In this document: positions 10,501 through 50,698 of the stretch, piece after piece
Layout of the letters: each line of letters starts with the position of its first letter
Position numbering within the stretch: the first letter of the stretch is position 1
IMG/VR virus record: IMGVR_UViG_3300029709_000016
Length of the DNA stretch: 57,842 nt
Direction: 5' to 3' (one strand)
Origin: a virus
Program-made: the position numbers and the translations under genes
The notes under the pieces: model-generated
The model's database searches: none
What the model was told of the DNA's origin: nothing
Seen by the model: only the letters and a program-made list of their open reading frames with translations

Positions 10501-11070
10501 ATGAAAACTTGTCCAAATTGTGGAGAACTGATAGGCGATAGCGTTGACCGTTGTTTTAACTGCAATTACAGCTTTAAGTACAAGAGCGTAATTAAGAAAG
10601 AAGCATTGCAGGAGTGCAGAAAGCAGGCAGAAAAAGAAATCGAAGAACTTAACCGGAAAAGAAAAGAAGAAAATGAGCGAAAAGAAGCTGTTATTAATGC
10701 TATTAAATCCGGCAGAATCACAAAAAACGACGTCATGAAAACAACCGGATTTGATTTTGTGGGATATAAAATTGTCAGATATTGCGGAATCGTAACCGAT
10801 ACTGCGTTATACAGTTTAGGCATGATGACGGATTTAAAAAATGCAATGAATTTTAAAGCGATGGTCGCAGGAAAAGAATATAGTGCATTTTCAGAAAAAG
10901 TGCAAACTTTTATAGATGAATTAATGAACGACATGGCATTAGAAGCCTTGTACAAGGGCGCAAACGGTTTAGTTGGAATATCATATAGCTGTGCGCCGTA
11001 TTGGAATACCGGCGACATTTCATTAATGATTACAATGAGCGGAACGGCTGTCTGCATTGAAAAGGAGTAG
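10501..11070 (+). CDS. zinc-ribbon + YbjQ (UPF0145)-like domain protein
   Basis: N-terminal CPNCG..CFNC. C-terminal TTGFDFVGYKIVRYCGIV..ALYKGANGLVGISY..SGTAVCI resembles the YbjQ fold family. Confidence 0.5.
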   Translation: MKTCPNCGELIGDSVDRCFNCNYSFKYKSVIKKEALQECRKQAEKEIEELNRKRKEENERKEAVINAIKSGRITKNDVMKTTGFDFVGYKIVRYCGIVTDTALYSLGMMTDLKNAMNFKAMVAGKEYSAFSEKVQTFIDELMNDMALEALYKGANGLVGISYSCAPYWNTGDISLMITMSGTAVCIEKE

Positions 11071-36664: not shown

Positions 36665-39127
36665 ATGAATAAAACGTATGGTCGTATAAATTGGGAAAAT
36701 TATCCGAGTGATGAAACACCACTGAATGAAAGTAATCTGAATAAAATAGATGTGGCTACAGATGAAATTGACAATAGGGTAATTACACTGGACACTACCA
36801 AAGCGACTAAGGAAGAAGTTTCAACACTGGTGCAGGACGTTACATTTGAAGAAAAGACAGGCATTATTACTATTACTAAAAAAAATGGCTCAAAAATAAC
36901 GATTGACACGCAGATGGAAAAAATCGCGGTAAATTTTTCATACAATGCCGAAACACAGCAGATTATTTTAACGCTTATTGACGGCACAAAGCAATATATA
37001 GACCTGACAGCACTGATTACGCAGTATGAGTTTTTGGCCAGTGATACGGTGGCATTTTCGATTGACGGCACCGGTAAAGTGTCTGCAATCGTAAAAGAAG
37101 CGAGCATACAGGAAAAGCATTTACAGCCTAATTATCTTGCAGATATTAAAGTTGAAGTTGCAAAAGCACAGGCAAGCCAGTCGGCGGCGGCAAAATCTGA
37201 AAGCAATGCAAAGGCAAGTGAAACAGCGGCGGCAACCAGTGAATCCAATGCGGCGGCGAGTGCTACAAAAGCACAGAGTTATGCTACTGGCGGTACAAAC
37301 AGCCGCACGGGCGAAGATACGGACAATGCAAAGTATTATAGCCAACAGTCGGCACAGAGCCAATCGGCGGCGGCAACAAGCGCAGATACGGCAAGTACGA
37401 AAGCAGAAGAAGCGGCGGCAAACGCGGCAACAGCTAAAACAAGTGCCGATAATGCCGCGGGAAGTGCAAATTTAGCCAATGAAAAGGCAAATAGCGCGGC
37501 AAATAGCGCAACCATCGCAGTTTCAAATTCCAATGCGGCACAGCAGTACGCTTCCAATGCGGCGGCAAGTGCGGACACAGCACAAAACTATGCCGTAGCA
37601 GATACAGACAGCGCAAAATACTATTACGAGCAGGCAAGACGGATTTCTGAATCGTTCTCGGGTGCATTAAGACCGATGGGAACGGTTACATTTGCAAATC
37701 TTCCGGCACTATCAGAAGCGGACGGCGGAAGCATGTATAACATTTCGGACCAGTTTACAACAACTGCTGAATTTAAAGAAGGAGCGGGAAATACTATTCC
37801 GGCAGGTGCTAACGTATACAAGACAGAGGACGGCAAGTGGGATGTCCTTGCGGGAACACCTGTAACAGGCGTAAAAGGCAGTGCAGAAAGCGAATATAGG
37901 AGAGGAAATGTTAATATTACAGCGGAAAATGTAGGACTTGGAAACGTTGACAATACAGCAGATTCCGCAAAGTCTGTAAAATATGCAGCAAGTGCAGGCA
38001 ACGTAAATTGGAACGGTATAACAGATAAACCGTCTACATATCCGCCGTCCAATCATAATCATGGCACAGCAGACCCCAATTTTACGTGTTTTTTAACAGA
38101 TAATACATCCGCAGGATTTTCGGCTTTGCATGACAACGGAGCTACAACAGGATTTTTCTTAAAAACCATCAGAGGACAGTCAACTGCTCCGAGCTGGTTT
38201 GAAGGCAACTATGCTTCCGGTATTGCTTTTGGCGGTGTAGATACCCATGCAGTGATTAGCTGTCGATATGAGTTCCCAAGAGTAACGTTCTGTGGTGGCA
38301 ATGGTACAGAACCGAATTGGTGGTATAGATTACAAGGTACAAGCGGACATAATTATATGTTAGACGATTTTATAACAACATCGGGTACTGACAGCCTTGC
38401 AGGTAGCATTGTTCCTAATGAAGATGTAGGCATGGAATTGGGAGATGAATCACACAGATTCACGAATATTTATTCAAGCAACATTACTACGGATACAATA
38501 CAATTCAATAATTATGATAATAGCGGCAATACAATTTATTATAGCGGTAACGATTCCGCAAATGGAAACGGTGGCGGGCTTAATAATCTGGTAATTCGGT
38601 CATGGTGGGGGGTATCGTTTACTTCCACGTGCGCTGACGGTCGGTACGGCGGCAAAAATCAAACTGCTGTAGGAATTGACTGTCGAGAAGGTATTGTTAA
38701 AGCGTATAATTTTGCGGGCTTAATAAATGGACACAGTGTTAATACAGACGTACCGTCAGACGCAAAATTTACGGATACAAAAGGAAGATATATTGGCACT
38801 ACCGTAACAAAGCCACAAGATAAAACAGAAATGTATATCACATATCTTTCAAGCGGTTATATTGTAATGGCAGGAAAAACAGTAAGCAAAAGCTATGCAA
38901 TGAATACACAATATGGAAATGCGTTTTGGGCACCGTTCACAATTTATTTGCCGCCTAATATTGTAAAAAATATTGACAGCGTGAATATTACTCCATTTGC
39001 GGAAACAGGGCTGATAAGTGCAAGCATAAACGGCTATACCAGCGAACAAATAACGGGATTTGTTTGGTCGCCACAAAACGAAACAAAAAGCATATCATTT
39101 CATGTTACCGTGCATGGAAGGGCATAA
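36665..39127 (+). CDS. tail fibre / receptor-binding protein (820 aa)
   Basis: Ala/Ser-rich fibre repeats (AAKSESNAKASETAAATSESNAAASATKAQSYA) and a globular C-terminus. Confidence 0.6.
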   Translation: MNKTYGRINWENYPSDETPLNESNLNKIDVATDEIDNRVITLDTTKATKEEVSTLVQDVTFEEKTGIITITKKNGSKITIDTQMEKIAVNFSYNAETQQIILTLIDGTKQYIDLTALITQYEFLASDTVAFSIDGTGKVSAIVKEASIQEKHLQPNYLADIKVEVAKAQASQSAAAKSESNAKASETAAATSESNAAASATKAQSYATGGTNSRTGEDTDNAKYYSQQSAQSQSAAATSADTASTKAEEAAANAATAKTSADNAAGSANLANEKANSAANSATIAVSNSNAAQQYASNAAASADTAQNYAVADTDSAKYYYEQARRISESFSGALRPMGTVTFANLPALSEADGGSMYNISDQFTTTAEFKEGAGNTIPAGANVYKTEDGKWDVLAGTPVTGVKGSAESEYRRGNVNITAENVGLGNVDNTADSAKSVKYAASAGNVNWNGITDKPSTYPPSNHNHGTADPNFTCFLTDNTSAGFSALHDNGATTGFFLKTIRGQSTAPSWFEGNYASGIAFGGVDTHAVISCRYEFPRVTFCGGNGTEPNWWYRLQGTSGHNYMLDDFITTSGTDSLAGSIVPNEDVGMELGDESHRFTNIYSSNITTDTIQFNNYDNSGNTIYYSGNDSANGNGGGLNNLVIRSWWGVSFTSTCADGRYGGKNQTAVGIDCREGIVKAYNFAGLINGHSVNTDVPSDAKFTDTKGRYIGTTVTKPQDKTEMYITYLSSGYIVMAGKTVSKSYAMNTQYGNAFWAPFTIYLPPNIVKNIDSVNITPFAETGLISASINGYTSEQITGFVWSPQNETKSISFHVTVHGRA

Positions 39128-40344: not shown

Positions 40345-40354
40345 GCATAAAAAT

Positions 40355-40377
40355 ACCGGGAGTGTAATACTCCCGGT
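40355..40377. terminator. Bidirectional hairpin terminator between convergent genes
   Basis: accgggagt-N5-actcccggt. Confidence 0.65.
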
Positions 40378-40383
40378 GATATT

Positions 40384-40893
40384 TTAATTATTATCATGCA
40401 AATCAATCATAACAGCTTCAACTTGTGGAATTGTTATCGGTTTATTCAATGTAGATGTATATGAATACTGACCGACATAACCACCATAAATGGTAATTCT
40501 ATCATTTTCAAGTAGTTTACCGTCAATTACATCATTTGCATAAACAACAAGCAACACATGATTATAGTCATCATCTACAGCCATTCTTATAGCGGTATAA
40601 TTGCTATCAACCGCACCAATCATCTGTATAACTTTTCCGTCAAATTTCACAGGTTTATCAATATTTTTGTCCGGGTATCTTGCAAGAGTTTCGTATGTAA
40701 TATCTTCGGTGTATGTCATTCTATCCCTTGATAACAGCGTTTCTTTTTCTGTAGGGGCTTCTGTTTCAGTTTGCGCTTCCGTGACGGCTTCTGTACTGCT
40801 TGCGGCGGCGGAATTATTCGCAGTTGAATTTTGGCAAGCTACAAGCCCTAAAAGGCATACCGGCATTAATAAGCATAATAATTTCTTTTTCAT
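40384..40893 (-). CDS. lipoprotein (169 aa), lysogeny-expressed cargo candidate
   Basis: Signal peptide with lipobox LVAC. Opposite strand to the late genes. Confidence 0.7.
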   Translation of the reverse strand: MKKKLLCLLMPVCLLGLVACQNSTANNSAAASSTEAVTEAQTETEAPTEKETLLSRDRMTYTEDITYETLARYPDKNIDKPVKFDGKVIQMIGAVDSNYTAIRMAVDDDYNHVLLVVYANDVIDGKLLENDRITIYGGYVGQYSYTSTLNKPITIPQVEAVMIDLHDNN

Positions 40894-41448: not shown

Positions 41449-41814
41449 TTATTTGTCTTGTACCATTGAATCGACAAGCTTTTCTAAACTATCCCAGTCT
41501 TTTTCGTCAAGCTTTCTTAACGCCGCAATAAGTCTATACTTAAAGCTTTTTTCACCAGCAGCTTGAATATCAGCAAACATTTCAGCTATTTCTTCATCTT
41601 TTGTCTTTTTAACAAAAGGTTCACCGTCACCTGTACGTAGCCAATATTCATTAACAGAAAATTCCTTACAAATCAAAGCTATTGCTGAATCACTCGGAAC
41701 GCTTCTTCCCATTTCATATGTTGCAACAGTATTCCTTTTTACTTTTATTTTATCGGCAAATTCCTGTTGCGTCAAATTAAAATGACTTCGGATTTCTTTA
41801 ATTCTATTGTTCAA
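41449..41814 (-). CDS. CI-like XRE-family repressor
   Basis: IKEIRSHFNLTQQEFADKIKVKRNTVATYEMGRSVPS HTH. Divergent from the early operon. Confidence 0.8.
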   Translation of the reverse strand: MNNRIKEIRSHFNLTQQEFADKIKVKRNTVATYEMGRSVPSDSAIALICKEFSVNEYWLRTGDGEPFVKKTKDEEIAEMFADIQAAGEKSFKYRLIAALRKLDEKDWDSLEKLVDSMVQDK

Positions 41815-41877: not shown

Positions 41878-41906
41878 TTGACAAATGTTTTTTATCGACA
41901 TATAAT
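41878..41906 (+). promoter_or_regulatory. Early promoter, exact consensus TTGACA-17-TATAAT
   Basis: Read directly from the sequence. Confidence 0.75.
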
Positions 41907-45030: not shown

Positions 45031-45211
45031 GATTTCGAAGAAACGGTATGAAGCACTTTTGGACACAGAAACAAGAGTTCAAGTGCTTTTGAGCAAAACA
45101 AAAGCGGATAAGTACATATCACTGGTGGACATGTACAGAATTTTGGGAAATGAGTTTGAAGCCCAAAAAATTGAAAAAGAAAGGGACAAGGTGGAATGGG
45201 ATGAAGATTAA
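45017..45211 (+). CDS. small protein (64 aa)
   Basis: Internal ATG after gaggggg. Confidence 0.4.
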   Translation: MAKIKISKKRYEALLDTETRVQVLLSKTKADKYISLVDMYRILGNEFEAQKIEKERDKVEWDED

Positions 45212-47138
45212 GCTGTTAAAAATTATATTAGAAAATTTCATGTGTTATGCGCATGAAGAATTTAACTTCTTTGATTTAACAAAAATCGCCGCAATGAACG
45301 GCAAAGGAAAATCCAGTATTGCTACGGCATACAACTGGTGCCTGTTTAACTGTGATTATGAATTAAAAGATAATCCGGTTGTGCGCCGGGAAGTAGGTGG
45401 AAAGCCTGTTGATGATATGGACACCAGTTCAACACTGGTGCTTGATGTTGACGGGAAAGAAGTAATTATGAAAAAAGTGCAGAAGCGTACCTACAGTAAG
45501 GATGGCAGCAGTTATAAGGACGATAACAAGTATTTCGTCAACGATGTGCCTAAGACATTAAAGGATTTTAACGCGTATCTTGATGTTGATATGAACGTGT
45601 TTAAGATGTGTAGTAATGTGAACGCATTTCTTAATCAGAAACCGGCAGACATGAGAGAATATTTATTCAATTTAGTAGAGGACGTTTCTGATATTGATGT
45701 AGCACGCCAGCAGACCGAATTAGCCGAGTTAGTTCCACTGTTGAACAAATATGCGGCAGAGGAATTATTGGCTATGAATAAGGCTATCAAGACCAAAATT
45801 ACAAAGGATTTGCCTATTCTTGACGGACAGATTAAGGAAAAGGAAAGAGATATACAGCTTAAACAGGCCGTAGATACATCTGACCTTGAATTACAGAAGA
45901 ACAGCCTTAAAGAGCAGATTGCCGATTGTGTAGCAAAGCAGACTGACAATGATAAGCTGTTATCCGGATATGATAAGGCAAGTACCGATATTATCAATCT
46001 TAAATTTGAACTGAATGACATGGGTCGCAAGGCAAATGAAGAAAATTTCAAACAGAGAAGACGGATTGATGATGAAATCGTTGACGTCAAGCGTAAGATT
46101 GATGAAATTTCAAGAAGCATTAAAACAGCTAATGATGAAATCGAAAAAGCCAATGCAGTTATTGGCAGATACACGCTTGAATTGCAGGAAGCTAGGGGGA
46201 CGTGGACGAAATTACATGAAATGCAGTTTGACGAAAATGAAAAAATTTGTCAGATGTGCGGACAGGAGTTGCCGGCAGACAAAGTTGAATTGCTTATTAA
46301 AAACTTTGAATCTAAAAAGGCTTCGGCACTCGAAAGCGAAGCTGAAAGGGGCAACAAGATTAAATTTCTTGTGGATTCAGAAAGAGAATCTGTTGCTAAA
46401 TTGAATGAAGAAATTGCTACACACGAATCCGAAAAAAAAGAACAGGAAGCGAAGTTAAAAGACCTTGAAAGCCAATTAGCGGCACTTCCAGTTGAAATTG
46501 ATGTAACAGGAACAGACGAATACAAGGCACTTGAACAGCAGATAGTTGAAAAGGAAGAAGCTATGCACAAGGCTAATGATATTTCAGCAGTCAAGGCAGA
46601 ATTAAAAGCACAGGAAACAGCTTTAAGGCAGCAGTTAGCAGAATGTGAAAGCCGGATTGCAAAGTCTGATACGGCAGCAGACGAACAGCGACTTGAGGAA
46701 TTAAAGCAGACAAGGATTGATTCTGAACAGAATAAGGCTAATGCGGAGAAAATCCTTGATTTACTTGATGAATTAGACAAAGCGAAGAATGAAGCTTTGA
46801 CAGAAGCAGTAAGCAGCCATTTTGGGTTAGTTAAGTGGCAGTTGTTTGAATATGCCAAGAATGGCAATTACAAGAGCTGTTGCATACCGACAGTAGATGG
46901 TAAGTCAATTCTTACCACTATGTCAAACAAAGGTAACAGAATACTGGGCAAACTTGATATTTGTAATAGTATTCAAAAAATCAGTAACTTGTCAGTGCCA
47001 ATTTTCTTAGACGACAGCGAAAGCTTATCGTCTGATAATCAAAGGAAAGTTGCAAATATGATTAACAGCCAGTTGATTATGTTGATTGTTAATAACAGCG
47101 ATAAATTAGAAATTTTAAATGGAAGTGAGGAAAATTAA
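45201..47138 (+). CDS. SbcC/Rad50-like AAA ATPase with long coiled coil
   Basis: Walker A NGKGKSS, a ~350-aa coiled coil with a central CQMCGQ hook-like motif, Walker B PIFLDDSESL. Confidence 0.7.
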   Translation: MKIKLLKIILENFMCYAHEEFNFFDLTKIAAMNGKGKSSIATAYNWCLFNCDYELKDNPVVRREVGGKPVDDMDTSSTLVLDVDGKEVIMKKVQKRTYSKDGSSYKDDNKYFVNDVPKTLKDFNAYLDVDMNVFKMCSNVNAFLNQKPADMREYLFNLVEDVSDIDVARQQTELAELVPLLNKYAAEELLAMNKAIKTKITKDLPILDGQIKEKERDIQLKQAVDTSDLELQKNSLKEQIADCVAKQTDNDKLLSGYDKASTDIINLKFELNDMGRKANEENFKQRRRIDDEIVDVKRKIDEISRSIKTANDEIEKANAVIGRYTLELQEARGTWTKLHEMQFDENEKICQMCGQELPADKVELLIKNFESKKASALESEAERGNKIKFLVDSERESVAKLNEEIATHESEKKEQEAKLKDLESQLAALPVEIDVTGTDEYKALEQQIVEKEEAMHKANDISAVKAELKAQETALRQQLAECESRIAKSDTAADEQRLEELKQTRIDSEQNKANAEKILDLLDELDKAKNEALTEAVSSHFGLVKWQLFEYAKNGNYKSCCIPTVDGKSILTTMSNKGNRILGKLDICNSIQKISNLSVPIFLDDSESLSSDNQRKVANMINSQLIMLIVNNSDKLEILNGSEEN

Positions 47139-47744
47139 ATGAGTAGAGAACTGGAACTTGCAAGAGAACCTGTGAGAAAGTTGGAAGAAGCAGAAAAGAC
47201 TAATAAGGTACAGTTATCAGAATTACAGCCAGGAGAAACGTTTAAAATCGGAGAACATGATTTTATCGTTCTTGAGCAGAACGTTTGCAATGGCACAACA
47301 AATGTAATATCTAAAGGCTTTATGGCAAAGGGTATTGTTTTTGACAGCAATACAAGAGATTACAACAAATCTAATCTTAAAAGAGCTATTGAAGAAAACA
47401 TCCAACCGGTCATTGAATCAGAGATTGGAGCAGGCAACATTATTAAACAGGCGGTTAGCTTAACATCTGTTGATATGCAAGATGAGTTTAAGCCTTGTTA
47501 TTGCAAGGTAAGACCGATAACGTTTAACGAAGCAAGAAAGTATAACAATTTGCTTTTTAATAAAGGATTGGACGATTGGTGGTGGACATGTACGCCTTGG
47601 AGTACGGCTGACAGGTGTTGGGAATGTACTGTAGCCGTTGTTTCGCCGTCCGGCGATGTCCGCAACTACGGCTGTGGCGACTGCTACGGTGTTCGCCCTT
47701 TTTGTATCTTAAAATCTAATATCTTTGTATCAAAAGGAGAATGA
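47139..47744 (+). CDS. DGR variable protein 1 (201 aa)
   Basis: C-terminus DDWWWTCTPWS..VAVVSPSGDVRNYGCGDCYGVRPFCI carries VR1. No signal peptide. Confidence 0.85.
   Translation: MSRELELAREPVRKLEEAEKTNKVQLSELQPGETFKIGEHDFIVLEQNVCNGTTNVISKGFMAKGIVFDSNTRDYNKSNLKRAIEENIQPVIESEIGAGNIIKQAVSLTSVDMQDEFKPCYCKVRPITFNEARKYNNLLFNKGLDDWWWTCTPWSTADRCWECTVAVVSPSGDVRNYGCGDCYGVRPFCILKSNIFVSKGE
47631..47707 (+). repeat. DGR variable repeat VR1
   Basis: 77-nt alignment to the TR. 16 differences, all at TR adenines, plus one C/T difference in the 3-prime IMH-like end. Confidence 0.9.
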
Positions 47745-48352
47745 TTATGACATTGACAATGAAAAGCTTGCAGGAGCAGATTAATGAATTAAGAAATGAA
47801 GTTGCTGTTTTAAAAGCATTTGAAAAGACAAGAAAGATTCCTACCGGGTTAAGTGTAGGAGATACATTTAAACTTGCTGGGCTTACATGGACAATCCTTG
47901 ATATTACAGATAAAGGATATATGTGTATTGCTGACAGATTAGAGGATTCAATGAAATTTGATAGTGAATCAAATAATTGGGTTGGAAGTCAGTTGAGAGG
48001 ATATCTCAACACGAAATTTATTAAAAAAATTGCTGATGAGATAGGGGAAGAAAATATCGTTTCGTTTAATCGAAATCTTCTTTCGCTTGACGGTCAAGAT
48101 GAATATGGAAACTGCAAAGACACAGTATCTTTATTGACCGTAGATGACTACCGCAAGTACAGAAGATTTATTCCGAATACTGACGATTGGTGGTGGCTTG
48201 CAACACCATGGAGTACAAAGCGTAATAGCTATGAATATTCCGTTGCCGTTGTTTCGCCGTCCGGCAATTTCAACTACCACGGCTGTGTCAACTACTACGG
48301 TGTTCGCCCTTTTTGTATCTTTTCATCTGAACTCTTTGAATCAGAGGATTAG
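47741..48352 (+). CDS. DGR variable protein 2 (203 aa), paralog of protein 1
   Basis: C-terminus DDWWWLATPWS..VAVVSPSGNFNYHGCVNYYGVRPFCI carries VR2. ATGA overlap with target 1. Confidence 0.85.
   Translation: MIMTLTMKSLQEQINELRNEVAVLKAFEKTRKIPTGLSVGDTFKLAGLTWTILDITDKGYMCIADRLEDSMKFDSESNNWVGSQLRGYLNTKFIKKIADEIGEENIVSFNRNLLSLDGQDEYGNCKDTVSLLTVDDYRKYRRFIPNTDDWWWLATPWSTKRNSYEYSVAVVSPSGNFNYHGCVNYYGVRPFCIFSSELFESED
48243..48319 (+). repeat. DGR variable repeat VR2
   Basis: 77-nt alignment to the TR. 13 differences, all at TR adenines, plus the same 3-prime C/T difference. Confidence 0.9.
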
Positions 48353-48355
48353 TAA

Positions 48356-48727
48356 ATGGCAGAAACAGATTTAAAAGTTATTTTAAAAGCAAAAGAACTG
48401 GCAGAACATACTTTGAGGATAACTTCAAATTGTAACCGATACCCGAAAAAATACAGATTTTCATTGGTAGATAAAATGCAGAATAAATCACTTGAAATCT
48501 ATGAATATTTGTATGAAGCCAATTGGACAGACTTGAAATTATATCGCAGAGAACGGTCAGAGCTGCAGACCAAAGCAATAACACATTGCGATGAATTGCT
48601 ATTTTATATTGAATTATCAATGAAACTGAACATTGTTAATGTAAAAAGCATGGAATACTGGTCGAAAATGGTTTCTGACATTAAGCATATGGCGATTGCT
48701 TGGAGAACCAAAGACAGAGGAAGATAA
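48356..48727 (+). CDS. avd: Avd-like accessory variability determinant (four-helix-bundle family)
   Basis: 123 aa, basic. YPKKYRFSLVDKMQNKSLEIYEYLYEAN pattern. Lies between the targets and the TR. Confidence 0.7.
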   Translation: MAETDLKVILKAKELAEHTLRITSNCNRYPKKYRFSLVDKMQNKSLEIYEYLYEANWTDLKLYRRERSELQTKAITHCDELLFYIELSMKLNIVNVKSMEYWSKMVSDIKHMAIAWRTKDRGR

Positions 48728-48751: not shown

Positions 48752-48828
48752 AAACCGTTGTTTCGCCGTCCGGCAATATCAACAACAACAACTGTAACAA
48801 CAACAACGGTGTTCGCCCATTCTGTATC
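48752..48828 (+). repeat. DGR template repeat (TR)
   Basis: Non-coding copy with eight AAC codons in the VR frame (aat atc aac aac aac aac tgt aac aac aac aac). 3-prime end cccattctgtatc versus VR ccctttttgtatc. Confidence 0.9.
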
Positions 48829-48926
48829 AAACAGGCAGTAAGAGTAGGCAATAAGCCGAAATCAGTAAAAGATACAAAAAAGTGCGCAACCTTTCCTAAA
48901 AGGATAAAAACAAAGGAATTATTACT

Positions 48927-49955
48927 ATGGATAAAGATATTATTTGTGATTATGAAAATTTGTACAAGGCTTATAAAAAAGCTAAAGCAGGCAAAGGCTT
49001 CAATGGAAGCAGTGCTAGGTTTCAGATGATGAATCTTGAGGGACTACATATGTTAAAAGAACAACTTGAAAATCAAACATATAGGGTGAATCCGTACAAT
49101 GAATTTAAGGTTTATGAGCCAAAGGAAAGAGTGATTAAGTCGTGTTCTTTTAAAGATAAAGTAGTACAGCATTGCTTGTGCGATAATGTGCTGCACCCGC
49201 AGTTGTCTAGTGAATTTATCAGAACGAATTATGCCGGACAAACAGGAAAAGGCACACATTTTGGAATGGATTGTTTGAAAGAGCAAATGCTTGAATTTTA
49301 CAAACAGCACGGGCTTGATGGTTGGATTTTGAAATGCGATATTACGAAGTTTTTCTATCAAATAAACCGCGATATTCTGAAAGACATAGTTGATTACTGT
49401 TTCAATGATGAGTATACAGTGTGGCTGAATCATCTATACATTGACAGTACTGACGGTTTGGGACTTCCACTTGGCAATCAAGTAGCACAAGTATACGCAT
49501 TACTTATGCTAAATGGGTTAGACCATTTTGTAACAGGCGAGTTAGGAGTGAAACTATATGGCAGATATATGGACGATTTTTATTTGATAGCGCCGAGCAA
49601 ATATTATTTGAAATGGTGTCTTGAATGTATTCGGCGGTTTGTGGAAAGTCTTGGACTATCCTTGAACGGAAAAACGCAAATAATTCCATTTAGAAGTGGA
49701 ATTTTATTTACAGGCTTTCATCATTATATCACAAAAGACGGAAAGTACATAAGAAAATTAACCAATACTAATAAGCGCAGAATCCGAAAGCGACTGCGCA
49801 AGTGGTGCAAGTTGGTTAAAACAGGGAGAATGACAGAGAAGAAGTTTTATGAAAAATACAATGCGTGGAGAAATCATGCGTTGCATGGAAATTGCATAAA
49901 GCTGTGTCATTCAATGGATTTATATGTAAAAGAATTATTAGAAAGAGAGGAATAA
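48927..49955 (+). CDS. DGR-type reverse transcriptase (342 aa)
   Basis: ILKCDITKFFYQI, GLPLGNQVAQVYA (DGR-type I/LGxxxSQ-like motif), GRYMDDFYLI (YMDD). Confidence 0.9.
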   Translation: MDKDIICDYENLYKAYKKAKAGKGFNGSSARFQMMNLEGLHMLKEQLENQTYRVNPYNEFKVYEPKERVIKSCSFKDKVVQHCLCDNVLHPQLSSEFIRTNYAGQTGKGTHFGMDCLKEQMLEFYKQHGLDGWILKCDITKFFYQINRDILKDIVDYCFNDEYTVWLNHLYIDSTDGLGLPLGNQVAQVYALLMLNGLDHFVTGELGVKLYGRYMDDFYLIAPSKYYLKWCLECIRRFVESLGLSLNGKTQIIPFRSGILFTGFHHYITKDGKYIRKLTNTNKRRIRKRLRKWCKLVKTGRMTEKKFYEKYNAWRNHALHGNCIKLCHSMDLYVKELLEREE

Positions 49956-49957
49956 TT

Positions 49958-50698
49958 ATGGCAGAGAATACGCAGTTAGTTGAATATGAATCAAATGGAG
50001 AAATGGTAAAAATTTCTCCAACAATGATAAGGAGATACCTTGTAAGCGGTGGTGGTAATGTATCTGACGGAGAAGTAATGATGTTTATGTCATTATGCAG
50101 ATACCAGCACTTAAATCCGTTTTTGAGAGAAGCATACCTTATTAAGTATGGAAGCAACGAGCCCGCCACAATAGTTACTGGAAAAGATGTTTTTACAAAG
50201 AGAGCCAATGCAGACCCACGATATAAAGGAAAGAAAGCAGGAATTATTGTAATTAAAAAGGACGGAGCTGTTGAAGAGCGAGAGGGAACAATGGTTTTAC
50301 CTAACGAAACCATCGTAGGTGGCTGGGCGAAAATCTTTATTGACGGAAAAGAGGACGAATACCAGTCAGTAGGTTTTGACGAATATGCTGGAAGAAAAAA
50401 GGACGGCTCACTCAATAGCCAGTGGGCAAAAAAACCAGCTACAATGATTAGAAAGGTTGCTGTCGTACAGGCTTTAAGGGAAGCATTTCCAGATAGATTC
50501 CAAGGCTTGTATGCACAGGAAGAATTTCAGAATATATCAGATGTAAAACTTGATACAGAAAAGGTTGTTGCTGATGAGGTTAAAGAGAACGCAAACACAG
50601 TAGATTTTGAGGAAAGCGACATTATCGACACCACAGCCACAGAAGTAACCGAAGAACAGGCAGAAGACAGTACGCTTCCACCGTTTATGCAGGAATAG
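49958..50698 (+). CDS. recT: RecT-family single-strand annealing recombinase
   Basis: ISPTMIRRYLVSGGG..FMSLCRYQHLNPFLREAYLIKYG..WAKKPATMIRKVAVVQALREAFP. Confidence 0.85.
   Translation: MAENTQLVEYESNGEMVKISPTMIRRYLVSGGGNVSDGEVMMFMSLCRYQHLNPFLREAYLIKYGSNEPATIVTGKDVFTKRANADPRYKGKKAGIIVIKKDGAVEEREGTMVLPNETIVGGWAKIFIDGKEDEYQSVGFDEYAGRKKDGSLNSQWAKKPATMIRKVAVVQALREAFPDRFQGLYAQEEFQNISDVKLDTEKVVADEVKENANTVDFEESDIIDTTATEVTEEQAEDSTLPPFMQE

Follow-up and report, generated by a model that had tools for sequence, protein, structure and literature searches.

A tandem pair of small DUF6273 proteins diversified by a retroelement in the putative early recombination operon of a temperate siphophage

The diversity-generating retroelements (DGRs) of phages are usually seen as a means of altering attachment to the host. 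The described targets closest to those treated here are small proteins with a DUF6273 domain. The tgt2 proteins of nd4 and nd12 are single C-type-lectin-like (C-lec)/DUF6273 domains with short flanking helices and a hairpin-forming variable repeat (VR), for which an Mtd-like role was proposed by Baykov et al. in 2023 (PMC10743442); the words “replication” and “early” are absent from that paper. The target pairs of the Faecalibacterium prophages Lelie and CP11, in which “small targets” were named, were described as unclear in function (PMC11792537). In Toutatisvirus, a second, core VR gene lies 17.5 kb from the template repeat (TR), with receptor binding as its suggested role, and targets were found to persist without a DGR (bioRxiv 10.1101/2024.10.15.618418). 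Here we describe a DGR with two small targets in tandem, T1 and T2, in the virus record IMGVR_UViG_3300029709_000016; the whole stretch of 57,842 nucleotides is referred to as the window. The target family, its fold, and its association with DGRs are already known. Three things are new in that we did not find them in the literature searched: a tandem small–small cassette that makes up the entire set of targets, the location of this cassette in the recombination operon, and a systematic anchoring of small targets in the early module. The useful new points are thus the core-independent early anchoring, the ancient paralogue pair, and the retention of the targets after repeated DGR loss.

The cassette is a DGR with a reverse transcriptase (RT), Avd, a TR, and two VRs, all on the + strand. 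A 76-nt repeat is present three times, as VR1 (47634–47709) in the 3′ end of T1 (47139–47744), as VR2 (48245–48320) in the 3′ end of T2 (47747–48352), and as the intergenic TR (48754–48829), which lies between avd and the RT gene, 98 nt 5′ of the RT start. Of the 17 positions at which VR1 departs from TR, 16 are TR adenines, and these are hypervariable across relatives; for VR2, 12 of 13 differences are at TR adenines. When the two VRs are pooled, 28 of 30 mismatches fall on adenines, which make up 23 of the 76 TR bases (P = 6e-13). The avd gene (48356–48727, 123 amino acids) has its best matches in Pfam bAvd (4.6e-4) and NCBIfam DivGenRetAVD (1.5e-11), both below the curated cut-offs, and is assigned by best match and by position; its position and size are as in DGRs. 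The RT gene (48927–49955, 342 amino acids; Pfam RVT_1, 8.5e-14) encodes a YMDD box and has LGNQVAQ in place of [ILV]GxxxSQ, the motif that marks DGR RTs. T1 and T2 are 35% identical (E = 2e-38), and together with the adenine bias of both VRs this bears out the claim, made in a preliminary description of the stretch, that they are tandem paralogous DGR targets. The same description held that the tail fiber (36665–39127) carries no VR. When the adenine-masked TR pattern was run against the whole window, only TR, VR1, and VR2 were matched, with 0 sites expected by chance; the tail fiber therefore has no VR, and a hidden VR in that gene was rejected.

The 3′ ends of the repeats are as expected for the asymmetry between an initiation of mutagenic homing (IMH) site and its IMH* counterpart, as far as the aligned repeats allow. 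Both VRs carry the non-adenine difference, a C>T at 48822, and both have A>T at 48819 and 48829. All three positions are 3′ of the GC-rich sequence GGTGTTCGCCC, itself common to the two VRs; the GC-rich elements span 47688–47698 in VR1 and 48299–48309 in VR2, each followed by an IMH-like tail. In both targets, 32–35 nt separate the VR end from the stop codon. A hairpin or cruciform 3′ of the VR is a feature of BPP-1-type DGRs and is not universal. No BPP-1-like hairpin follows the VRs here, as there is no inverted repeat of at least 7 nt after VR1 and only an AT palindrome, inside avd, after VR2. We suggest that RT and Avd would copy TR RNA into cDNA, misincorporating opposite template adenines, and that the cDNA would replace the last ~76 nt of the adjacent T1 and T2 genes, with directionality set by the common GC-rich/IMH-like 3′ ends. 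TR encodes T-VVSPSG-N-I-NNNN-C-NNNN-GVRPFCI, with eight AAC codons, one AAT, and one ATC. The ten recodable codons give a computed 1.5e11 possible protein variants per VR, so that each target, with 10 codons recoded, might take about as many forms.

The relatives of the window are many related 40–65-kb IMG/VR contigs, and the architecture of the region was read in 80 loci. In 95 non-redundant TR–VR pairs from these relatives, 989 of 1031 mismatches are at TR adenines. TR is nearly invariant across relatives; the VRs vary. The DGR anatomy and a clade-wide, adenine-specific diversification are in this way established at the level of sequence. The diversification is standard mutagenic retrohoming, and the DGR is real and, judging from the comparison between genomes, probably active. 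About 51 of the 80 loci have avd and RT, and about 28 lack both. A VR shared with other loci was found in 10 of 37 cases for DGR-less genomes and in 3 of 36 for genomes with the DGR. Two of the latter three belong to a truncated copy of the same phage (L041), and the third differs in length from its own genome’s TR. By this comparison, it is mainly among DGR-less genomes that VRs are shared and look frozen.

Nine of the TR–VR pairs examined have a VR one codon longer (67 nt) than its own TR (64 nt), measured in the register of window positions 47635–47698 and 48246–48309 (L008 VR1, L012 VR2, L026 VR1, L031 VR2, L069, L076, and L082). A 67-nt TR is found in other genomes, and one 67-nt VR is unchanged in three genomes. 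The mismatch in length suggests either that the TR gained or lost bases once homing had last occurred or that phages have swapped target genes. A second peculiarity concerns the eight AAC codons. In the VR cores of the window’s clade, in register with window 48775–48807, A-to-C changes number 60 of 632 at the first codon position and 1 of 632 at the second. Therefore, Thr, Pro, and Ala are essentially never seen; this deficit could be due to selection against these residues or to a context-dependent misincorporation bias of the RT.

The order SbcC-like gene, T, T is kept in at least 76 of the 80 loci, and both T open reading frames (ORFs) are intact in essentially all of them and in distant lineages. 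Three tandem T copies were noticed in a few relatives (L022, L140, L163, and L196); three such loci enter the architecture count over the 80 loci. DGR-less genomes are of two types. In the first, avd codons 1–6 are joined at GATTTA to the last 13 RT codons (L007, L011, L015, L017, and L023, ~10610–10670), and in the second, about 41 avd codons are joined at GATTT to the same RT end (L006, L009, L030, and L034, ~10610–10760). They share their right-hand junction, GATTTATATG, which is 13 codons short of the RT stop, and the counterparts of the junctions in the window are at 48356–48375 and 49913–49955. Each deletion leaves a small in-frame avd′–′RT fusion ORF directly 5′ of the recombinase gene. 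Since these are two distinct microhomology deletions, the avd–TR–RT core has been lost at least twice, with both targets left intact. A recent insertion of the cassette into the operon was rejected, as the T–T pair is core in the clade and the DGR-less genomes are deletion derivatives. With the VRs masked, dN/dS against the window is 0.21 for T1 and 0.20 for T2, compared with 0.06 for SSB, 0.06 for Avd, 0.10 for RT, and 0.35 for Ant. Pseudogenization was rejected on the scaffold value of about 0.2.

At greater distance, the T2 family comprises 1587 clusters with E<1e-3, 771 of them with E<1e-10, in a library clustered at 50% identity, mostly proteins of about 200 amino acids. One library protein of 6,979 amino acids, P0148, has 22 stretches matching T2 at 29% identity and is presumably a giant repeat protein of DUF6273 domains. 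The cassette T–T–Avd–TR–RT recurs in lineages whose T proteins are 30–45% identical to those of the window, and in 17 distant loci both tandem copies have adenine-biased VRs (341 of 384 mismatches at A). In a neighbor-joining tree, upstream and downstream T copies separate within each supergroup; mean identity is 42.6% between copies in the same position and 32.8% across positions. The duplication is therefore old and the paralogues are not redundant, and a recent tandem duplication or concerted evolution was rejected because the upstream and downstream copies fall in separate clades. By these comparisons, T1 and T2 are ancient, non-redundant paralogues and core genes of the phage clade. They might instead be decaying remnants, or a recent selfish cassette without a phage function, as could be argued from the roughly one third of relatives that do without the DGR core. 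The intact ORFs, the constraint on the scaffold, the paralogue order kept since the ancient duplication, and the origin of DGR-less genomes by deletion from a DGR-carrying state rather than as the ancestral form make this very improbable.

In the window, the diversified genes are placed opposite the lysogeny switch and not in the tail module. A sigma-70-like promoter, TTGACA-17-TATAAT, with a 12/12 consensus match, is at 41878–41906 on the + strand and is divergent from a gene for a CI-like transcriptional repressor on the − strand (41449–41814; phrog_8/phrog_4, E = 4.6e-19). It is the putative early lytic promoter of the cassette operon, to go by its sequence and setting. On the + strand, 3′ of the promoter, the order is Ant, SSB, the SbcC/Rad50-like ATPase, T1, T2, avd, TR, RT, the Bet/RecT recombinase, and a metallo-β-lactamase (MBL) hydrolase, and no strong terminator-like site was seen on this strand between 42 and 52 kb. 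The ATPase gene occupies 45150–47138 (+; Pfam AAA_23, 2.1e-12; phrog_77 SbcC-like, 4.6e-55), and the gene for the RecT/Bet-type single-strand annealing protein occupies 49958–50698 (+; Pfam RecT, 4.9e-38; TIGR01913 bet_lambda, 9.1e-41), starting 3 nt past the RT stop. T1 and T2 would thus be transcribed early, with the SSB, SbcC-like, and RecT genes. These neighbors, identified with Pfam, PHROG, and NCBIfam, agree with the preliminary description, which had set the two genes in an early recombination operon rather than in the tail module, between an SbcC-like ATPase and avd, RT, and RecT. It had further pointed to the abutment of the ATPase stop (47138) and the T1 start (47139), which is present in the window but is peculiar to its lineage. 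Most relatives have an extra ORF of 107–111 amino acids between the ATPase and T1 (L006 9063–9398) that is deleted in the window, and the C-terminus of the window’s ATPase (...KLEILNGSEEN) resembles a chimera of the ATPase end and the end of the extra ORF (...KIINESEEN). The abutment (47100–47140) is therefore a lineage-specific deletion scar. On the other side of the cassette, the recombinase gene (window 49958–50698 compared with L006–L038) exists as two alleles. The first is 99–100% identical to the window’s RecT even where the neighboring genes are 75–90% identical; for the second, only a short C-terminal stretch aligns, at 33–67% identity. These alignments suggest that modules have been exchanged at the very edge of the DGR.

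The same kind of neighborhood is found far from this clade. When 137 flanking proteins from 27 diverse metagenomic loci were compared with PHROGs, the commonest cassette neighbors were SSB (8), replication initiation proteins, DNA methyltransferases, MBL hydrolase, RecT-like proteins (6), primase/helicases, and ParA, and the 25 commonest neighbor families included none for head or tail. The small homologues of FP_Toutatis (gp24), Lelie (orf58), FP_Brigit (gp06), nd4, and nd12 are all in DNA-metabolism regions, that of FP_Brigit between the lysogeny switch and the exonuclease/RecT genes, and there is no Avd or RT within the flanking 7–8 kb of any of the five. Homologues encoded always in tail modules had been named as the finding that would speak against an early role; instead, the five phage lineages and the 27 metagenomic loci all have them among DNA-metabolism genes. 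In Toutatis, the DGR core (Avd, TR, RT, and a Hoc-like tentaclin) comes after the tail fiber gene. TR mismatches are at A in 12 of 12 positions for the early-region gp24 and 13 of 13 for the tentaclin, and both genes thus carry a true VR of this TR. As gp24 is early although the core is by the tail genes, the early position belongs to the small target family and is independent of the site of the retroelement. In the same phage, RefSeq has a 50-amino-acid “DUF6273 domain-containing protein” between Avd and RT (FP_Toutatis gp80; L200 27049–27201; NC_047915.1 49048–49200). This coding sequence overlies the Toutatis TR (about 49056–49174) and is therefore an annotation artifact.

The placement of the cassette could also serve the retroelement itself, if RecT/SSB annealing helps to integrate cDNA into the VRs, as in recombineering with retrons and RecT. 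The 3-nt interval between the RT stop and the RecT start and the frequency of RecT-like proteins and SSB among the neighbors in the 27 loci are in line with such a coupling, and, to our knowledge, the mechanism of DGR cDNA integration is unresolved. We nevertheless consider it quite improbable. The Toutatis core, by the tail genes and far from the recombination genes, still serves an early-region VR; small targets are early even when no RT is adjacent; about a third of relatives have lost RT and kept RecT and the targets; and RecT alleles are swapped between close relatives.

T1 has 201 amino acids and matches phrog_9958 (7.6e-30). T2 matches phrog_9958 (2.3e-50) and Pfam DUF6273 (PF19789; 1.4e-9), the latter with 38.5 bits, above the Pfam gathering score of 23.5. 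T1 scores 18.6 bits against DUF6273, which is sub-threshold, yet it is T2-like and matched by phrog_9958, a PHROG without known function. The phrog_10993 “Hoc-like” profile matches the C-terminal ~60 amino acids of the targets. An NCBIfam scan found no model for T1 or T2, and a search of PDB sequences with T2 gave no match at E≤10. An alternative T2 start, ATG 47741, overlaps the T1 stop and would give 203 amino acids, the size first reported. The true start is likely ATG 47747, because AGGAG is 9 nt upstream and an identical database protein, P0001, has 201 amino acids; of the two sizes in the preliminary description, the 201 for T1 is kept and that for T2 is likely 201 as well. In a Kyte–Doolittle scan, no 19-residue window of either protein has a mean above 0.92, so both lack a hydrophobic signal or transmembrane segment, as had been claimed.

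The AlphaFold2 model of T2, made with a 40-sequence alignment, has a predicted local distance difference test score (pLDDT) of 86.8. An N-terminal helix, residues 5–28 (pLDDT about 77–86), is followed by an α/β domain. VR2 encodes residues ~167–192, and the strands of the model in this part are 165–169, 175–179, and 189–192; the VR is predicted to form a β-hairpin (165–179) and the last strand. The T1 model, from a T2-dominated alignment, was poor (pLDDT 56.8) and was not used. In Foldseek, the T2 model has its best PDB match in the IgA peptidase of Thomasclavelia ramosa (9qa6, E = 2e-5), at the N-terminal DUF6273 domain, followed by weak matches to collectin units of neck plus carbohydrate recognition domain (CRD) and to other C-type lectins; among viral models, 23 DUF6273-type gut-phage proteins match at E<1e-3. 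The predicted scaffold is thus an N-terminal helix and a DUF6273 C-type-lectin-like domain. A C-type-lectin-like scaffold is what the preliminary description had foreseen, and the DUF6273 match and the T2 model, with the VR on a C-terminal β-hairpin, support it; the N-terminal coiled coil that it also described is, in the T2 model, a predicted helix. The variable hairpin would be the ligand-binding surface of the domain, and the VRs are rich in Asn, Asp, Gly, Tyr, and Ser, a residue usage typical of binding sites. The IgA peptidase gave no functional lead, as its authors assign no catalytic role to the DUF6273 N-terminal domain (PMC12402451). Conserved cysteines were dropped as evidence for disulfides, since the cysteines vary across the wider family.

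What do T1 and T2 bind, and where? We put at about even the chance that they are soluble hypervariable binders that would be made early and act off the virion. This role is favored because of the synteny, the cysteine content, the DUF3310 fusions, and the lack of a virion anchor domain. Cysteine makes up 4.5% of T1 and 2.0% of T2, against 0.57% of the 16 virion-module ORFs of the window (maximum 1.6%) and 2.6% of its non-structural ORFs; the Toutatis tentaclin has 0.24% and five small homologues have 1.7–2.3%. Pfam and PHROG scans of T1 and T2 found no Ig-like domain beyond the DUF6273 part, the Pfam scan found no FGE-sulfatase match, and Mtd is absent among the Foldseek matches listed for T2. 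In nd12_tgt2 (L005 7728–8621) and in the protein P0274, one or two N-terminal DUF3310 (SaV-like) domains are fused to DUF6273. Among the fusions found, it alone offers a hint of the compartment in which the family acts. Phage proteins with DUF3310 are early and frequently toxic; the lactococcal SaV protein, which has this domain, is early, toxic, and interacts with AbiV (PMC8306868).

Several considerations weigh against such a role. Every experimentally characterized phage DGR target that we know of is a virion protein. Surveys class viral DGR targets mostly as tail proteins (PMC8144416) or as head-decoration and tail-fiber proteins, and DUF6273 is elsewhere extracellular, as in the secreted, sortase-anchored IgA peptidase (PMC12402451). 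The domain is found, too, in tentaclin/Hoc-like virion proteins and in the 6,979-residue P0148, and in nd4, nd12, Toutatis, and Lelie a single TR serves a small target together with a tentaclin that is presumed to be on the virion. The layout of a helix and a lectin domain, going by the weak Foldseek matches, may resemble the trimeric collectin neck and CRD, binders of repetitive surfaces, and the terminal helix could be a virion docking module. The cysteine and synteny arguments are correlative, the promoter is a consensus match only, and the exclusion of cysteine has been documented for aerobic Firmicutes only (PMC2823432).

Taken together, much of this would fit T1 and T2 as virion-attached accessory receptor-binding proteins or adhesins, Mtd- or tentaclin-like, that are merely encoded outside the structural module. 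The terminal helix would then attach them to the tail or capsid, with the DGR adjusting their binding to glycans of the host surface or the mucosa. This is the default reading of small DUF6273 targets in the literature (PMC10743442; bioRxiv 10.1101/2024.10.15.618418); it draws on the presence of DUF6273 in extracellular and virion proteins, on the TRs that diversify a tentaclin together with a small target in other phages, on the collectin-like layout, and on the binding-site-like residue usage of the VRs. We regard it as a real though somewhat unlikely alternative. The genes are in replication/recombination modules across deep divergence, wherever the DGR core sits, and some family members are fused to a domain of an early protein. 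No anchor domain, Ig-like or β-prism, is recognizable; the cysteine content of T1 and T2 is above that of all 16 virion-module ORFs, with the tentaclin cysteine-poor; and the phage’s own tail fiber is undiversified.

For action off the virion, a place inside the infected cell has an appreciable probability, roughly a good third of the whole, and release a considerably smaller one. As released proteins, T1 and T2 would be soluble lectins freed at lysis that mask receptors on debris or neighboring cells, or serve as a public good by binding mucus or glycans. Both proteins are small and soluble, without a signal peptide or anchor, their predicted fold is lectin-like, and the genes are kept after DGR loss. 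We know of no precedent in the family, however, and receptor masking should co-vary with the receptor-binding protein, which is undiversified here; the cysteine-rich composition argues weakly against extracellular life. Release is therefore unlikely in our view. Returning to soluble early binders that stay in the cell, the most probable target would be a variable macromolecule of the host or of a rival phage inside the infected cell. It is tempting to propose, though tentatively, that the two proteins are stand-alone, intracellular, antibody-like binders whose repertoire of ~1e11 variants is directed at host defense or rival-phage proteins.

The window appears to be a complete genome of a temperate siphophage, as read from its genes. 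These include a serine integrase (3.9 kb), terminase (19.2 kb), portal (21.8 kb), major head protein (24.3 kb), tape measure (29.7 kb), the tail proteins (34.5–39.1 kb), and an endolysin (39.2 kb), with a strong terminator-like hairpin at 40354–40378. Between this endolysin terminator and the repressor, on the − strand, is an ORF of 169 amino acids (40384–40893) with a match to phrog_5319 (E = 1.7e-21). That family is labeled “outer membrane protein”, which is strange in a phage whose host is Gram-positive; the ORF probably represents a moron expressed in lysogeny. The host is called as Lachnospira because a T2 homologue, 86% identical, sits in a Lachnospira intestinalis prophage, the one locus found in a scan of genome contigs. 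No match to the 5.5-kb region was returned when 50,697 phage records were searched with megablast.

The small DUF6273 targets are tied to the replication/recombination module across deep phage divergence and are kept after loss of the retroelement. Should their site of action be off the virion, hypermutation by DGRs in gut phages would serve a second interface, be it host takeover, counter-defense, or inter-phage competition, and nature would have provided in this family a library of compact, programmable binders. If they are intracellular binders, phage DGRs would also drive intracellular arms races, not only adsorption, and the small DUF6273 family, with its 771 clusters, would be a widespread binder class. 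The proposal of a non-virion DGR target is directly testable, because cultured lysogens exist, namely Lachnospira intestinalis CLA-AA-H89B and the Faecalibacterium phages Toutatis and Lelie.

The published small DUF6273 targets (nd4/nd12 tgt2, Lelie, CP11, and Toutatisvirus) belong to the same PHROG and Pfam families as T1 and T2, with tblastn identities of 31–35%. They share the single C-lec-like domain with a terminal helix, the 3′-end VR as a β-hairpin, the early or DNA-metabolism location, and the persistence where a DGR is absent. In contrast to them, T1 and T2 are two small tandem paralogues, the sole targets, directly 5′ of avd–TR–RT, whereas in each published case a single small target lies far from the DGR core, and that core diversifies a large tentaclin as well. 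T1 and T2 have the helix at the N-terminus; in Toutatis, Brigit, and nd4 it is C-terminal. The published small targets were read as receptor-binding proteins, and their gene position was not discussed. The tentaclins (FP_Mushu, FP_Brigit, FP_Toutatis gp82, and nd4/nd12 tgt1) likewise carry the VR on a DUF6273 C-lec domain. They are, however, cysteine-poor proteins of 400–600 amino acids, with an N-terminal C-lec domain and then 3–4 Ig-like domains thought to anchor in the virion, and their genes adjoin tail or lysis genes; T1 and T2, with 201 amino acids, the VR at the 3′ end, and no Ig-like domain, are not tentaclins.

The DGR of BPP-1 (mtd-avd-TR-brt) has the same order of target, avd, TR, and RT as the window, and shares with it the adenine-specific transfer from TR to VR, the C-terminal VR in a C-lec fold, and the GC-rich/IMH-like 3′ boundary. 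Mtd itself is a 381-amino-acid trimeric protein of the tail-fiber tip, with a β-prism, a β-sandwich, and an FGE-type C-lec domain, encoded at the end of the tail module. The window differs in having two targets of 201 amino acids with a DUF6273-type C-lec domain, in an early operon, and no hairpin 3′ of the VRs. The collectins CL-K1, SP-A, and SP-D resemble the T2 model in that a helical neck precedes a C-type-lectin domain (Foldseek E 0.06–0.4); the TM-scores are low, and the likeness is put forward as one of architecture only. Finally, cyanobacterial DGR targets have C-lec domains fused to regulatory or signaling modules (PMC7517822), and immune roles have been proposed for bacterial intracellular DGR targets (PMC10053308). 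These are a precedent for diversified C-lec domains as variable sensors or binders inside cells, with the difference that the bacterial targets are cellular and multidomain, whereas T1 and T2 are phage-encoded and stand alone, without an effector domain.

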